Below the pieces are notes generated by a model. That model ran no database searches. It saw only the letters and a program-made list of their open reading frames with translations, and was not told where the DNA came from. Source: Escherichia phage vB_EcoM_Ozark. Taken from it: a stretch of DNA of 64,000 bases. Positions 8,463 through 13,230 of this stretch are shown here, piece after piece; the stretch's first letter is position 1; each line of letters opens with the position of its first letter. The stretch lies in sequence record NC_054927.1, one strand, 5' to 3'. Made by a program: the position numbers and the translations under genes.

Positions 8463-8771
8463 TTAATCTTCTATGATATCTCTATCATATCCAAGTGAAA
8501 TGAGAGTTTCTTTGAAGTGTTTAATGTTCTTTTGTCTAGAATCATTAATGAAAATGACTGGATAACGAATGTTAAGAGATGTGAATCCAGCGCGTTTAGC
8601 AAGAGATACAATCAGCGGACGATCATACTCAATCTTACCATTATTTGTAAGAACTTTATAGAAAGTAAAAGGAGCATTGAGCTCCTTTAGAAGTTTTGTA
8701 ACTGATTGACATCCAGGACAACGACCTACTTCATCTGGAATTCCATAGACTTCAATCTTATTTTGTTTCAC
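8463..8771 (-). CDS. nrdH: Glutaredoxin-like protein NrdH
   Basis: 102-aa ORF with CPGC redox motif near the N-terminus; lies upstream of nrdG/nrdD; first codon appears to be GTG. Confidence 0.6.
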   Translation of the reverse strand: MKQNKIEVYGIPDEVGRCPGCQSVTKLLKELNAPFTFYKVLTNNGKIEYDRPLIVSLAKRAGFTSLNIRYPVIFINDSRQKNIKHFKETLISLGYDRDIIED

Positions 8772-8773
8772 AA

Positions 8774-8986
8774 CTATTCCTTACTAAGAGCAGCATTCAG
8801 CTTGTTAGTAATTTTATCCAGACGCTCATTAAACTCACTAGAAGATAAGCCCTTTTCTGGAGAAATTAAACTAATCACGAAAAATATAGCAATAAAAGGA
8901 ATAAGGAAAATAGCTCCAACTGCCATAAACAGAAAGAATGTTACAGTTGTAAGAAAATCAGCTAAACCTTTACGAAATTTATACAT
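8774..8986 (-). CDS. Small membrane protein
   Basis: 70-aa ORF with one long hydrophobic segment (TVTFFLFMAVGAIFLIPFIAIFFVISLI). Confidence 0.4.
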   Translation of the reverse strand: MYKFRKGLADFLTTVTFFLFMAVGAIFLIPFIAIFFVISLISPEKGLSSSEFNERLDKITNKLNAALSKE

Positions 8987-9101
8987 ATTTTACCCTTAAT
9001 TGATTAACCAAGCATTGATAAGCACTAAACTATATTGCGAATAAAATTCTGGACCAAAATGAAAAATCATATCATTTATAGTGTCCATAATATAATTCAA
9101 T

Positions 9102-9572
9102 TTAATCATGTTTCCACACCCCATCGGTATTTGACCAAAGTCGCTGATTATCTGATCCTCGCCACAGCTTTTTAGTCGGAAGATTTTTCTCATACTTCCC
9201 ATCAATAATAACATCAACATATTTAAGCATTTCTAGTTGTTTAATATCTTCAAACTTATATCCTGTCCACAACCAAATGCTTTTATTGGGATAAAGATTT
9301 TTTACTGTTTGAACTACAGAGTGAATCACGTCTCTGTTATCAGGATAAAGAGGGTCACCTCCGGTTATAGTTAATCCTTCTATATAATCATTATTCAAAC
9401 ATTCAATCAATTGTTCTAGTGTTTCACCAGTAAATGGAATACCATTTCTAGCATTCCATGTTGATTTATTATAACACCCTTCGCATTTATGCAAACAACC
9501 TGTAACGAAAAGAACGGTCCTGCAGCCAGGACCATTAACAAAGCAGCACGGGTATATTCTGTCATAATTCAT
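9102..9572 (-). CDS. nrdG: Anaerobic ribonucleotide reductase activating protein NrdG (radical SAM)
   Basis: 156-aa ORF; Cys-rich N-terminus (CCFVNGPGCRTVLFVTGCLHKCEGC) typical of glycyl-radical activases; directly follows nrdD. Confidence 0.85.
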   Translation of the reverse strand: MNYDRIYPCCFVNGPGCRTVLFVTGCLHKCEGCYNKSTWNARNGIPFTGETLEQLIECLNNDYIEGLTITGGDPLYPDNRDVIHSVVQTVKNLYPNKSIWLWTGYKFEDIKQLEMLKYVDVIIDGKYEKNLPTKKLWRGSDNQRLWSNTDGVWKHD

Positions 9573-10401
9573 TTATATATTTCCAATTATAGCCTTCAAC
9601 ACTTTTACGTTCGCCATTTAAACATTTTAAAATATTTCCTTTGCTAGAAATATTAAAATATTTTGCTGCGTCTGGTATATAATTAAATGTTTTTAAAAGA
9701 ACACCATCTTTATATGCGCCAAATAAATTAAGAGTATATTTTTCTCGAAGACGCTGATGTTTCCTTTTCATAACCTCAGGATTTGCATACGCCAACTTCA
9801 ATGAATTTCTGTGTTTTTCTTTTACTTCAGGTTTTTGCATTGCTAACTTAGTTAGCCTGGAAATTTTATTTCTAACTTCGTCAGTTTTCATTGCATTTGA
9901 CAAATTTAATAAAGTTTTATTTCTAACTTCAGGTTTTTGCATTGCTAACTTAGTTAGTTCTCTATGTCTTTTTCTAAAATCGTCATCCTTCCATATATTT
10001 TTCGATAATTTTGACATAGAGCGGTGAAATAATTCCTTTTCACTGGAATACAATTTAAAAATTTCATCCAATTCATCCGCATTAAATCTATCGGTATTCG
10101 AGTTTATCATTCTATGAAAGGCATAACACATTTTACTATTGCTTGTTTTAGCTAAATAGTAATGAGCTAACGCATGGTCATAATATGACAAATTAACAAT
10201 ATTCCATTTATCTGTTTTATATTCAGGAAATATAGATTTGGGAAGCACGTGATGTGCTTCCGTTTTTCCTTTTATTTTAGGATTATTATAATTTTTTGTT
10301 ATCAAATCAACATATGACAATAGTAAATCATTATTTTCTTCAAATATTAAAGCTAATTTATCATTCACAAAATCGCAAGGATAAAATCTATCATAATTCA
10401 T
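9562..10401 (-). CDS. HNH-family homing endonuclease inserted between nrdD and nrdG
   Basis: 279-aa ORF; HNH core (EAHHVLPKS...NIVNLSYYDHALAH); ATG overlaps the nrdD TGA stop and the 3' end overlaps the nrdG start by 11 nt. Confidence 0.7.
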   Translation of the reverse strand: MNYDRFYPCDFVNDKLALIFEENNDLLLSYVDLITKNYNNPKIKGKTEAHHVLPKSIFPEYKTDKWNIVNLSYYDHALAHYYLAKTSNSKMCYAFHRMINSNTDRFNADELDEIFKLYSSEKELFHRSMSKLSKNIWKDDDFRKRHRELTKLAMQKPEVRNKTLLNLSNAMKTDEVRNKISRLTKLAMQKPEVKEKHRNSLKLAYANPEVMKRKHQRLREKYTLNLFGAYKDGVLLKTFNYIPDAAKYFNISSKGNILKCLNGERKSVEGYNWKYINEL

Positions 10402-12215
10402 TGGTGTTTAACCCTATGCATGATTTCTTTATTTTTACCGAGATTAAATCCGCGTTCGTTCGGATTTCCCAAATAACCACATGTTCTTCTTATGGTATTC
10501 ATCTTTTTAGGATCAGTTTCTCCACAAATAGAACAAACAAATCCGTTTTCAGTAGGAGTCATTTCATGGGTGCTTCCGCATGTAAAACATTTATCTACTG
10601 GCATATTAACACCAAAATAATCTAAATGTTGTGCAGCATAATCCCAGACGGCCTCAAGTCCCTTTAAATTGTTTTTCATATCAGGAAGTTCAACATAAGA
10701 AATGTGACCACCTGTTGCAATGAAATGATATGGGGCTTCGCGAGAAATCTTTTCAAACGGAGTGATATTTTCTTCTACTGAAACATGGAAACTGTTAGTG
10801 TACCAGCCTTTATCAGTAACATCCTTTACACTTCCATATTTTTCAGTATCAAGTTTACAGAAGCGATAGCACAGGTTTTCAGCAGGAGTAGAATACAAGC
10901 TAAAAGCAAAACCGGTTCTTTCAGTCCACTGCTTAAGACGAGCATTCATTTTAGTTAAAATTTCCTGTCCAATATCACGACCGACAAGAATATTCAATTC
11001 GTGAATACCAATGTATCCTAGGGACACTGAACTTCTACCGTTTTTAAATAACTCAATTATGTCGTCATCAGGTTTAAGACGAACCCCGAATGCACCTTCT
11101 TGGTAAAGAATAGGAGCAACAGTCGCTTTAACTCCTTTTAAGGAACTAATTCTACACATCAAAGCTTCAAAACACAAATCCATTCGTTCATTGAATAATT
11201 CAACAAATTTCTGTTCATTGAACTGTGTTCCAATATAAGAATCTAACGCGATGCGAGGAAGATTCAGTGTTACAACACCAAGATTATTACGTCCATCAAG
11301 AATTTCATTACCAGTCGAATCTTTCCATACGCTCAAGAAACTACGGCAACCCATTGGAGAAACAGGAACAGATGAACCAGTGATAGCTTTATTGTTCTTA
11401 GCTGAAATAATATCAGGATACATCCTTTTGCTTGCACACTCTAGAGCAAGCTGCTTAATATCATAGTTCGGATCGTCTTTGTAAAGATTAACGCCTTCTT
11501 CGACGAACATAACAAGCTTAGGAAAAATAGGAGTTATCCCATCACGACCGAGACCTTTAATACGATTTTTCAGAATTGCTTTCTGAATCATTCGTTCAGT
11601 CCAGTCAGTTCCCGTACCAAATGTAATTGTTACAAAAGGAGTCTGTCCGTTTGAACTAAAGAGAGTATTTACTTCATATTCATAAGCTTGGAATGCATCG
11701 TATACGTCTTTTTCTGTTTTAGATTGAGCATAATTCAACGCATCAGCGATTTGCCATTTTTCTGCGTCCTCAATATGTTTTGCATAGGTGCGTTTAACAT
11801 AAGGAGAAAGTACTTTATCTACATTAGCAAAAGTCGTTCCGCCATATTGATGGGAAGCAACTTGCGCAGTAATTTGTGCCATAATTGCAGTAGCAACTCC
11901 AATTGATTTAGGAGTTTCAATCTGCGCATTACCAAGCTTAAATCCATTCTCAAGCATTCCTTTTAAATCTACTAAACAACAATTAGTAAATGGAAGAGCA
12001 GGGGAATAATCAATATCGTGGAAATGAATAATTCCGCTTTCATGCGCTTTCATAATAAAAGACGGGACCATATTTTTGGCAATGTGTTTAGACACAATAC
12101 CAGCCATAAGGTCCCGTTGAGTTGGAAAAACACGAGAATCTTTATTAGCATTCTCGTTTAAAAGGTCTTTATTAGTTTTATGAATCAATCCTTCAATTTC
12201 TTTTTCAATTGTCAT
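10398..12215 (-). CDS. nrdD: Anaerobic ribonucleoside-triphosphate reductase NrdD (glycyl-radical enzyme), uninterrupted
   Basis: 605-aa continuous ORF; C-terminal glycyl-radical motif RRTCGYLG and CxxC zinc ribbon (CFTCGS...CSICG); no intron visible. Confidence 0.9.
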   Translation of the reverse strand: MTIEKEIEGLIHKTNKDLLNENANKDSRVFPTQRDLMAGIVSKHIAKNMVPSFIMKAHESGIIHFHDIDYSPALPFTNCCLVDLKGMLENGFKLGNAQIETPKSIGVATAIMAQITAQVASHQYGGTTFANVDKVLSPYVKRTYAKHIEDAEKWQIADALNYAQSKTEKDVYDAFQAYEYEVNTLFSSNGQTPFVTITFGTGTDWTERMIQKAILKNRIKGLGRDGITPIFPKLVMFVEEGVNLYKDDPNYDIKQLALECASKRMYPDIISAKNNKAITGSSVPVSPMGCRSFLSVWKDSTGNEILDGRNNLGVVTLNLPRIALDSYIGTQFNEQKFVELFNERMDLCFEALMCRISSLKGVKATVAPILYQEGAFGVRLKPDDDIIELFKNGRSSVSLGYIGIHELNILVGRDIGQEILTKMNARLKQWTERTGFAFSLYSTPAENLCYRFCKLDTEKYGSVKDVTDKGWYTNSFHVSVEENITPFEKISREAPYHFIATGGHISYVELPDMKNNLKGLEAVWDYAAQHLDYFGVNMPVDKCFTCGSTHEMTPTENGFVCSICGETDPKKMNTIRRTCGYLGNPNERGFNLGKNKEIMHRVKHQ

Positions 12216-12685
12216 TTTAAACTCTTTCTAAGCTGCTTCTTAAATGAAGCTATTAACTGTGTTTTGGTGTCAGATTCATTATATTCAAATCCTCTTTGAA
12301 GCATCTCGGCCATCATTTCCTCTTTTCCTAAACGAGAAAATTCCTTTGATTTATCTCCAACAAAGTTAGGGTGAATATTATTTTGGGTGTAATCGGATTT
12401 TAAATAAGTAAGTAAATTTTCTAACCATTCAAGATAATCAACACCTTGTCCCTTTAAGCCAGAACGATTAAATTTGTGCTTCATTTGACCTTCTGCAGCA
12501 TTGCAGAGATTACAAAGCAATCCACGTACCTTTCCTGCTTTTGGTCCATTTAATTCATGGTCATGATCGAGGTGATTAGCTTGAACATCAGGATTTAGTT
12601 CTCGTTGGCAAATTAAGCATTTACCGTTTTGCGCATCATAAAATTTCTGTTTTTCTTCTTTATATAATTTGCCAGTCAATAACAT
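12212..12685 (-). CDS. 49: Endonuclease VII (Holliday-junction resolvase)
   Basis: 157-aa ORF; CLICQ...HLDHDHE...CNLCN zinc-binding/catalytic signature characteristic of T4 gp49. Confidence 0.85.
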   Translation of the reverse strand: MLLTGKLYKEEKQKFYDAQNGKCLICQRELNPDVQANHLDHDHELNGPKAGKVRGLLCNLCNAAEGQMKHKFNRSGLKGQGVDYLEWLENLLTYLKSDYTQNNIHPNFVGDKSKEFSRLGKEEMMAEMLQRGFEYNESDTKTQLIASFKKQLRKSLK

Positions 12686-12726
12686 AATAAACCCTTACCT
12701 TAAATAGATAAGGGTATTTATTATTT

Positions 12727-13230
12727 TCAAGTATTGTAAAACATTTGATTCAATCGCTTATATTGCCGAATCTTTTGGTCAGAAAAAGAAATTTGGGTTT
12801 CAAGCCATTCAATATATTCTGCCGCAGCTTGCATCAAATTTCCTTCATAGCCATCGTTATTTTCTTGTGCAGCTAATTTAGCTAATGCGTATGAAATACG
12901 TTCACCTTGAAAATCGGCTTTAGGCTTCTGAACAACTTGATTAGTTCGCTCTACAACTTCTTCAATTTCGCCATTTTCAACGGATTCAGTATTCCATAAG
13001 CACCAATACGTAATTGGCTTATCATAGATATTAATAATCTTTCCGTCGGAAAGTTCAATTTCAATAATTCCAGTATCAGGCTCTATATCATCTTCGCATT
13101 CTTTTGCAAGTTCACGAACTTTAAAGACAGTACCTGCACTAAGTTCCGGCCAGTAATTACACAGCCCTGTATCAGCACGATTAATTCTAAACCACTTATC
13201 TACTGTAATCATGTCCCATCTCCATATCAA
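12727..13230 (-). CDS. Hypothetical protein (position corresponds to T4 pin region)
   Basis: 167-aa ORF downstream of gene 49; identity not verifiable without a search. Confidence 0.35.
   Translation of the reverse strand: MIWRWDMITVDKWFRINRADTGLCNYWPELSAGTVFKVRELAKECEDDIEPDTGIIEIELSDGKIINIYDKPITYWCLWNTESVENGEIEEVVERTNQVVQKPKADFQGERISYALAKLAAQENNDGYEGNLMQAAAEYIEWLETQISFSDQKIRQYKRLNQMFYNT

Follow-up and report, generated by a model that had tools for sequence, protein, structure and literature searches.

In bacteriophage T4 a gene lies between nrdD and nrdG, which encode the large subunit and the activase of the anaerobic ribonucleotide reductase (RNR). This gene is mobC (210 aa), which overlaps nrdD by 4 nt and nrdG by 11 nt. 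In T6, LZ2, RB6 and other phages mobC is reportedly replaced by the gene for SegH, a GIY-YIG homing endonuclease, in work attributed to Sandegren and colleagues (2005). We have analysed the same locus in a stretch of 64,000 nt, hereafter called the window, from Escherichia phage vB_EcoM_Ozark (NC_054927.1), a Tequatrovirus (best matches at 98% identity). On the minus strand of the window the order is gene 49, nrdD, an open reading frame (ORF) of 279 aa and nrdG. The ORF is probably a Mob-family (HNH-type) free-standing homing-endonuclease gene (HEG) at the mobC locus. It forms a start-less cassette of 829 nt that lies in frame after nucleotide 40 of nrdG, and it would be translated by coupling to nrdD, while its product would cleave near nucleotide 40 and a re-coded patch would confer immunity. 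The gene and its locus are already known and annotated, and the 279-aa gene of Yersinia phage PST is annotated as mobC. By sequence comparison the window gene is this known mobC-locus element, only distantly related to T4 MobC. A preliminary description, made from the letters of the window alone, had expressed doubt as to whether T4 carries a gene here; mobC, whose position and whose overlaps of 4 and 11 nt agree with those of the window gene, answers it.

The endonuclease ORF starts with MNYDRFYPCDFVN and nrdG starts with MNYDRIYPCCFVN, with 11 of 13 amino acids identical. The first 40 nt of the two reading frames match at 31 positions and are spaced 829 nt apart. The first 11 nt are identical, and nine differences follow in the next 29 nt, so that the words "near-identical at DNA level" in the preliminary description went too far. 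A repeat search of the sequence returned a 41-nt direct repeat (9533-9573 and 10362-10402, spacing 829, 78% identity). When the nrdG 40-mer was compared with both strands of the window, the upstream copy (31/40) was the sole non-self match of at least 25/40, and the runner-up reached 24/40. The repeat is far beyond chance.

Phages without the HNH cassette (HEG-) can be compared with those that have it (HEG+). The 3' end of nrdD runs directly into nrdG, as a contiguous junction, in 558 phage records. A scan of IMG/VR for relatives of nrdG yielded HEG-free loci only, which were used as empty sites. Nine close relatives from IMG/VR share an ATGA in which the nrdD stop and the nrdG start codon overlap, therefore the intergenic space is nil. 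A single nrdG start is also found in all distant T4-like genera sampled. The upstream copy of the window is identical at 40/40 positions to the nrdG start of the HEG-free loci L007-L010. Past ...GTGAATG the endonuclease ORF diverges (ATAAATTAG...) and the HEG-free nrdG goes on GCCCTGG. Thus nrdG originally started at the upstream copy, and the insertion falls after nucleotide 40 (...GTGAATG/ATAA...). This comparison of junctions with and without the insert had been proposed in the preliminary description. Its core idea, that a homing-endonuclease gene was inserted and captured the translation start of nrdG, is supported by the single nrdG start of the HEG-free relatives. The likely homing site that it placed at the nrdD/nrdG junction has to be corrected, as the insertion point lies 40 nt inside nrdG. 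It had also given the ORF and the ATGA and 11-nt overlaps, all of which are as listed here.

10398..10401, minus strand: ATGA overlap of the nrdD stop (TGA) with the ATG of the endonuclease ORF; the same ATG is the nrdG start in HEG-free phages
9562..10401, minus strand: endonuclease ORF, 279 aa, Mob-family HNH-type (ORF list; phrog_655, phrog_12434)
10362..10401, minus strand: upstream copy of nrdG nt 1-40, which forms endonuclease codons 1-13 and the first base of codon 14; resident allele
9533..10361, minus strand: 829-nt mobile cassette, made up of endonuclease codons 14-279 and the re-coded copy of nrdG nt 1-40 (comparison of the flanks with HEG-free alleles)
9533..9572, minus strand: downstream copy of nrdG nt 1-40, the re-coded nrdG start, cassette-borne; restores a complete nrdG
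9543..9561, minus strand: re-coded patch, nrdG nt 12-30; eight differences from the upstream copy, six of them fixed between HEG+ and HEG-
9562..9572, minus strand: 11-nt overlap ATGAATTATGA, with the nrdG start codon and the endonuclease stop (TGA, 9562-9564)
9102..9572, minus strand: nrdG, anaerobic RNR activase, 156 aa (Pfam Fer4_12, E=1.4e-48)
10398..12215, minus strand: nrdD, anaerobic RNR large subunit, 605 aa, uninterrupted (ORF list; Pfam NRDD, E=1e-171)

The cassette is present in two phage genera. The gene has a sporadic distribution: of about 845 records with the locus, 20 from Tequatrovirus and 10 from Klebsiella phages carry it, and 11 HEG+ genomes (seven Tequatrovirus and four Klebsiella Jiaodavirus) were examined in detail. 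Between the genera the nuclease is 86% identical in amino acid sequence. The cassette has a length of 829 nt, or 826 nt in the Klebsiella phages, and the junction AATG/ATAA is present in 11/11 genomes. When the cassette is removed in silico the flanks continue the HEG-free alleles at 95-100% right to the junction, and a co-conversion tract is absent on either side of the cassette. In the Klebsiella phages nrdG is preceded by a 77-aa ORF instead of nrdD, and the cassette occupies the identical nrdG position. The nrdG start of their HEG-free relatives L018 and L029 is MNFDRIYPSDFVNG. In the HEG+ Klebsiella phages the nuclease starts with MNFDRIYPSDFVN, and the nrdG behind it starts with MNYDRIYPCCFVN, as in the window. 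The upstream copy agrees with the local empty allele at 40/40 positions in Roth04 and SmallBear and is one synonymous base off in UTI-K1 and KP01.

The upstream copy is the resident allele, which tracks the local lineage, and the downstream copy is private and travels with the cassette. Therefore the element consists of nuclease codons 14-279 plus its private copy of nrdG nt 1-40, and since these last 40 nt copy the start of nrdG, the nrdG reading frame is rebuilt. The preliminary description had left a choice between a duplicated and a captured start. Capture is what is seen; there is no simple duplication, as the downstream copy is a distinct, re-coded allele borne by the cassette. A target-site duplication of the transposon type was rejected for the same reason, the downstream copy being the cassette's own allele in both genera, 8-12 positions off the resident. 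An intein or group I intron was also rejected. The ORF ends in TGA and nrdG restarts at its own ATG in another frame, which excludes an intein, and there were zero Rfam intron matches. Among relatives the cassette is present or absent at one fixed site, outside any intron or intein. A search of IMG/VR with the exact 21-mer of the cassette end found only the unrelated contig L036.

The nrdD gene of the window is without a group I intron, and Rfam models gave zero matches over 8500-12800. The HNH cassette occurs together with an nrdD intron and I-TevII in PST (L002) and 235Ecol030PP (L038), and without the intron in the window and three other HEG+ phages; therefore the two mobile elements assort independently.

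The cassette owns no start codon. The endonuclease ORF begins at the resident nrdG ATG, and its first 13 codons are resident nrdG sequence. The frame is closed by a TAA three codons ahead of this ATG, and the next methionine is residue 91, past the HNH motif. Judged by its sequence, the stretch YPCDFVN of the window protein can come only from nrdG. We also considered an nrdG-like start as a native trait of this nuclease family and rejected it for the window cassette, since a T6 paralogue of the nuclease, located between genes 46 and 47, is without such a start and begins VKNFKLDIND. At the other end the nrdG ATG begins 8 nt ahead of the endonuclease TGA. The overlap of nrdD and nrdG leaves zero room between them: the cassette enters the gene, takes the displaced start and brings a spare.

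The borrowed start has consequences for expression that were modelled from the RNA. To open the start region, a calculated 9.4 kcal/mol is needed for native nrdG and 9.3 kcal/mol for the nuclease, against 2.3 kcal/mol for the rebuilt nrdG. In these folds the native nrdG start is buried in a hairpin with the 3' end of nrdD, and the nuclease inherits the buried start. Because the inherited start lies in this RNA hairpin, translation of the nuclease would be coupled to nrdD, and the energies fit a low-level, nrdD-coupled translation. The 2010 review PMC2988022 describes several ways in which T4 keeps its endonucleases at low levels and gives translational coupling as the proposal for mobE. A promoter scan limited to sigma-70, which left out T4 middle and late promoters, gave sites not above those of shuffled sequence. 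That the re-coding serves to free the nrdG start site found little support, since the re-coded start has 2.3 kcal/mol and the native 40 nt have 3.0 kcal/mol in the same context.

The private copy is re-coded relative to the resident alleles at nt 12-30. When seven HEG+ and nine HEG- Tequatrovirus were compared over 2.3 kb, fixed differences were found only at nt 12, 18, 24, 28, 29 and 30 of the downstream copy, and none among the 348 variable sites of nrdD. Codon 10 (9543-9545) is changed from GAT to TGC (D10C). Of 119 NrdG cluster representatives of phage and bacterial origin, 117 have Asp at position 10, and the two exceptions share the start MNYDRIYPCC. The re-coded start is present in all 11 HEG+ genomes examined and in 2 of the 558 HEG-free junctions. 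It is strongly associated with an occupied locus, being rare in empty junctions (these two) and present in most occupied ones. In the two HEG-free phages, U5 (L043, 2526-2565) and ESh24 (L051, 2539-2578), the re-coded start with C10 is fused to the native nrdD end. They are candidate products of a precise cassette loss through the 11 identical bases, or else candidate free-living resistant alleles.

A hairpin adjoins the insertion site.

9513..9536, minus strand: G+C-rich inverted repeat or hairpin AATGGTCCTGGCTGCAGGACCGTT, nrdG nt 37-60 (terminator-like scan)

It consists of 10 pairs followed by a T-rich run, encodes GPGCRT and was flagged as terminator-like. The insertion point is at its 5' edge, and it recurs in every computed fold that includes nrdG nt 37-60.

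The window protein matches phrog_655 (E=7e-37) and phrog_12434, "HNH endonuclease" (E=7e-15). Three parts of it can be placed on the DNA.

10162..10254, minus strand: HNH motif region, residues 50-80, HHVLPKSIFPEY...WNIVNLSYYDHALAH
9814..9957, minus strand: two 42-nt direct repeats (9814-9855 and 9916-9957), NUMOD3-like linker (repeat search; helical in the model)
9586..9699, minus strand: C-terminal NUMOD1 or I-HmuI-like DNA-binding module, sub-threshold, residues 235-272 (Pfam PF22083, PF07453)

Residues H50, H51, N67, H76 and H80 are kept in the window protein and are invariant among eight database homologues (alignment A3). BLASTP aligns T4 MobC with the window protein over 60 aa around the HNH motif at 38% identity. 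At residues 235-272 PF22083 (E=2.4e-4) and PF07453 (E=5.7e-3) both fall under their curated cut-offs; the models of the C-terminal module match five of nine family members, with a best E of 1.9e-7. An AlphaFold model (pLDDT 73.5) predicts an N-terminal strand-strand-helix unit, a long helical linker (residues 108-222) and a C-terminal hairpin with helices. Searches of solved structures by sequence, with the single protein and with a profile, gave zero matches. The 42-nt repeats inside the nuclease gene (90% identity, 102 nt apart) encode repeated helical modules LTKLAMQKPEV(R/K). A metagenomic variant of 242 aa, P0002, is without exactly the stretch between the repeats. Comparison of this variant with the repeats suggests that the DNA-binding linker can be shortened in frame by deletion between the repeats.

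For codons 14 to the end dN/dS is 0.08 between the genera (dS 0.85) and 0.11-0.13 within Tequatrovirus. The ORF is intact in 10/10 full-length copies examined. The nuclease ORF is under strong purifying selection, as the dN/dS of 0.08 means that the protein is maintained by it. We rejected the assignment of the window gene as an orthologue of T4 mobC: only 60 aa align at 38% identity and the junctions differ (nt 40 against about nt 21), so that the two belong to the same family and to different lineages. In a tblastn search with T4 MobC (E<=1e-20) the records were either at least 95% or less than 60% identical, with none between.

Homing could proceed as follows. The nuclease would be translated by coupling to nrdD, and nrdG by re-initiation past the nuclease stop. 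During a mixed infection the enzyme would cleave an unoccupied nrdG in the vicinity of nt 40. The cassette would then be copied as the break is repaired from the occupied genome, with nrdD plus nrdG 1-40 as one homology arm and nrdG 41 onward as the other. The occupied genome would be spared on two counts: in the upstream copy the right half of the site is gone, and in the rebuilt copy the left half is re-coded, D10C included. More tentatively, and with somewhat less than an even chance of being right, a broader reading may be offered. Here a start-less cassette would home into the coding sequence of a gene of an essential pathway and be expressed from the host's start by coupling, and its re-coded 5' end would rebuild nrdG and make the site uncuttable at the cost of an invariant Asp changed to Cys. 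The patch, common to three nuclease cassettes that are unrelated or only distantly related, would mark a common target of competing endonucleases.

Several points speak against these proposals. Table 1 of PMC2988022 gives no activity for any MobC, with "ND" as the entry and the target listed as unknown; the same source states that free-standing endonucleases of T4 commonly cleave hundreds of bases away from the genes that encode them. The label "HNH" of the preliminary description stands on the invariant motif, the PHROG families and the BLASTP match to the HNH core of T4 MobC, but the Pfam HNH model stays below threshold for the window protein, although T4 MobC, MobB and the KP27 homologue pass. 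When the full-length model was used in fold searches, they returned no convincing nuclease match, only a weak match to a phage HNH protein. SegH and Hef are said, in the abstract of the 2005 work by Sandegren and colleagues, to cleave their own genomes as well, so immunity need not be present. In addition the re-coded start is not private to the HNH cassette. SegH, recognised by its 100% identity to the annotated gene of LZ2, is present in 71 records. The re-coded start flanks about 62 of these 71 SegH genes, four or more mobC genes of the T4 type and the two HEG-free junctions, and it may therefore be a SegH-linked or founder polymorphism that hitch-hikes, rather than the cassette's own immunity.

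The last point can be extended to a different history, which is possible but on the whole unlikely: the re-coded start would be a flank polymorphism that arose with SegH or protects against it, and the HNH cassette would have formed once on that background by an AATGA microhomology join at a break in nrdG, keeping the re-coded start as a frozen passenger. The re-coded start is 40/40 identical downstream of SegH in phage 132, it accompanies most SegH records as noted, and the nrdD 3' end is re-coded at SegH loci as well, so both sides of the native junction are altered there. The combination of a SegH-type nrdD tail, a T4-type MobC and the re-coded start in Shigella phage SHFML-11 looks like a turnover of cassettes that left the flanks in place, and TTGGA(A)ATAT...ATG just upstream of nrdG is common to all three cassettes. 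However, about nine SegH+ records (LZ2, moha and others) have the native nrdG start, making the linkage looser than the 11/11 of the HNH cassette, and in Jiaodavirus, with zero SegH at 90% identity or more, the re-coded start nevertheless arrives with the HNH cassette. SegH itself reportedly cuts near the nrdD intron insertion site, about 1.3 kb away, again according to the 2005 abstract. The window enzyme could likewise have a target elsewhere, for example the nrdD intron-insertion site, in the way that MobE targets nrdB, and the nrdG repeat would then be a landing scar. The distant cutting usual among free-standing T4 endonucleases and the company of the nrdD intron and I-TevII in PST and 235Ecol030PP agree with this, yet we consider it improbable: the 2.3 kb of flank hold no HEG-linked polymorphism save nrdG nt 12-30, with 0/348 variable nrdD sites fixed, the co-conversion tract is absent on both sides, the junction is unchanged in a genus whose nrdG does not have nrdD as its neighbour, and the window and three other HEG+ phages are intron-free.

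A decaying or domesticated remnant, immobile and kept only since an imprecise deletion would destroy nrdG, is very improbable. The unreported activity of MobC, the sub-threshold Pfam HNH match and the rarity of the gene (30 of about 845 records) are what such a remnant would explain. It accords poorly with the dN/dS values of 0.08 and 0.11-0.13, with full-length ORFs that are all intact and retain invariant catalytic residues, and with clean junctions in two genera; the 11-nt identical repeat would moreover offer an easy route to precise loss, of which U5 and ESh24 look like the product. There is next to no chance that nothing was inserted, with a fusion of nrdG and nuclease or a tandem nrdG duplication as the original state and HEG-free loci as deletions. 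The two copies are oriented in tandem and the upstream one shares its frame with the nuclease, as such an origin would have it, but it is already contradicted by the single nrdG start in the 558 records and all distant T4-like genera sampled, by an upstream copy that tracks the local allele in each genus while the downstream copy does not, and by nuclease paralogues at other loci (T6, genes 46/47) without an nrdG-like start. The preliminary description had named an origin of the MNYDRxYPC segment in an ancestral fused gene as the finding that would overturn its view; it fails because the HEG-free relatives show a single nrdG start. The insertion of a probable Mob-family cassette after nrdG nt 40 is thus the reading that we prefer.

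In UTI-K1 (L033, 2877-3713) the nuclease is annotated as a second NrdG activase because of its borrowed N-terminus, which leads some pipelines to label the nuclease in this way. In G3F7 (L046, 2924-3395) nrdG is annotated in two pieces. KP01 (L034, 2620-2640) has a 2-nt insertion (atatatataa), its nuclease ends ...WKYI before the stop, and the overlap with nrdG is lost. Upstream of nrdD the window has the following gene.

12212-12685, minus strand: gene 49 (endonuclease VII)

TadeuszReichstein (L037, 6207-7028) carries one more annotated homing-endonuclease gene, located between gene 49 and nrdD, which is absent from the window. Its nrdD and that of L004 start MSLEKDVLNF, against MTIEKEIEGL. 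The divergent nrdD 5' end would therefore go with the insertion between gene 49 and nrdD.

The passages searched in the mobC literature, which did not include Sandegren et al. 2005, describe neither an in-frame capture of the nrdG start nor a re-coded spare borne by the element, nor do they give the cross-genus evidence. Sandegren et al. 2005 may already note the nrdG-like start of T4 mobC. The present comparison provides a base-precise insertion point (nrdG nt 40) and a candidate recognition patch of 19 nt for the mobC-locus enzyme, the T4 MobC junction being at about nt 21. The target of the mobC-locus nuclease, listed as unknown in PMC2988022, becomes a directly testable question. A paper of 2012 (PMC3468402) regarded convincing evidence for movement between genera as lacking. 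The window cassette and the T4-type mobC are both present in phages of E. coli and of Klebsiella, which amounts to movement between genera.

T4 mobC is among the closest known systems. It shares with the window gene the locus and strand, the ATGA overlap with nrdD, the 11-nt overlap with nrdG and membership of phrog_655. Its first codons, too, are those of the resident nrdG (MNYDRIY in T4, MNFDRIY in a Klebsiella phage), and both proteins end ...GY.WKY..EL. T4 mobC differs in its length (210 against 279 aa) and in its junction, at about nt 21 of nrdG instead of nt 40, and the rebuilt nrdG of T4 keeps D10 where that of the window has D10C. The T4 nrdG also holds about 120 nt of sequence specific to its cassette. 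The start MNYxxIY is native to other Mob proteins (MobB MNYLNIY, KP27 MNYQKIY, and the MobC homologue of leB too), therefore the T4 fusion could have formed through chance homology, and such a chance similarity to the nrdG start may have guided the formation of the T4-type mobC fusion. In the Slopekvirus/Pseudotevenvirus phages KP27 (L047) and leB (L048, 2139-2180) a MobC homologue of 44% identity lies directly upstream of nrdG and has its own start. The nrdG start of KP27 and leB is also re-coded (nt 9-24, D4I) when compared with the HEG-free loci L026 and L031.

The T4-type gene has a history of its own. Wolf_ER13 (L049, 1501-2133), a Klebsiella Jiaodavirus, has a MobC 99.5% identical to that of T4, which starts MNFDRIY/SNLVNS. 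This start is the local nrdG allele to about nt 20, and the nrdG behind it starts like that of T4. Boboto (H199), another Klebsiella Jiaodavirus, also has a T4-type MobC. These sequences are evidence for what appears to be a recent transfer of T4-type MobC between genera. The T4 nrdG (L001, NC_000866, 6447-6917), compared with L049, L018 and L008, is a mosaic of three parts: over nt 1-120 it is identical to Wolf_ER13, over nt 120-300 it resembles Jiaodavirus (27-30 of 30 positions in each 30-nt block), and from nt 300 onward it resembles Tequatrovirus. The mosaic looks like a co-conversion tract from the entry of mobC into the T4 lineage from a Klebsiella-phage-like donor.

The SegH gene occupies the same nrdD/nrdG junction as the window cassette, overlaps the nrdG ATG (ATGA) and usually has the re-coded nrdG start downstream. 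In contrast to the window cassette it encodes a nuclease of an unrelated family, starts at a codon of its own that overlaps a re-coded nrdD 3' end, lies at the junction proper and not inside nrdG, and is without an nrdG-derived N-terminus. At the SegH loci L044 (2050-2110), L050 (1440-1500) and L053 (380-440) the nrdD 3' end ...KMKEMVKRVKHA replaces ...KNKEIMHRVKHQ, each before the stop, and the SegH start ATGCATAGG is a 9-mer that is also present in the native nrdD tail. The SegH start may mirror, on the nrdD side, the capture of the nrdG start. SHFML-11 (L052, 520-1300) combines a SegH-type nrdD tail, 12 nt of native nrdD tail, a T4-type mobC and a hybrid re-coded nrdG start. To judge by these sequences, this mosaic is a clear trace of one endonuclease gene replacing another. 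In the SHFML-11 record nrdG is annotated from an internal start only.

T4 mobE, between nrdA and nrdB, and Aeh1 mobE, which splits nrdA, are like the window cassette promoter-less HNH cassettes in ribonucleotide-reductase operons. The mobE start overlaps the upstream stop, with coupling proposed (PMC2988022), and Aeh1 tolerates an insertion inside a coding region. Unlike the window cassette, mobE has its own start codon, and in Aeh1 the host gene is left in two pieces, with no spare end carried by the element.

Some integrative elements carry a replacement end of their target gene, as in an attP that restores the 3' end of a tRNA gene. Like the cassette they insert inside a gene and supply a substitute end, and the result is an imperfect direct repeat with a resident and an element-borne copy. 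These elements move by integrase-mediated site-specific recombination, whereas break repair is presumed for the cassette. They replace a 3' end, but the cassette replaces a 5' end and uses the displaced 5' end for its own protein.

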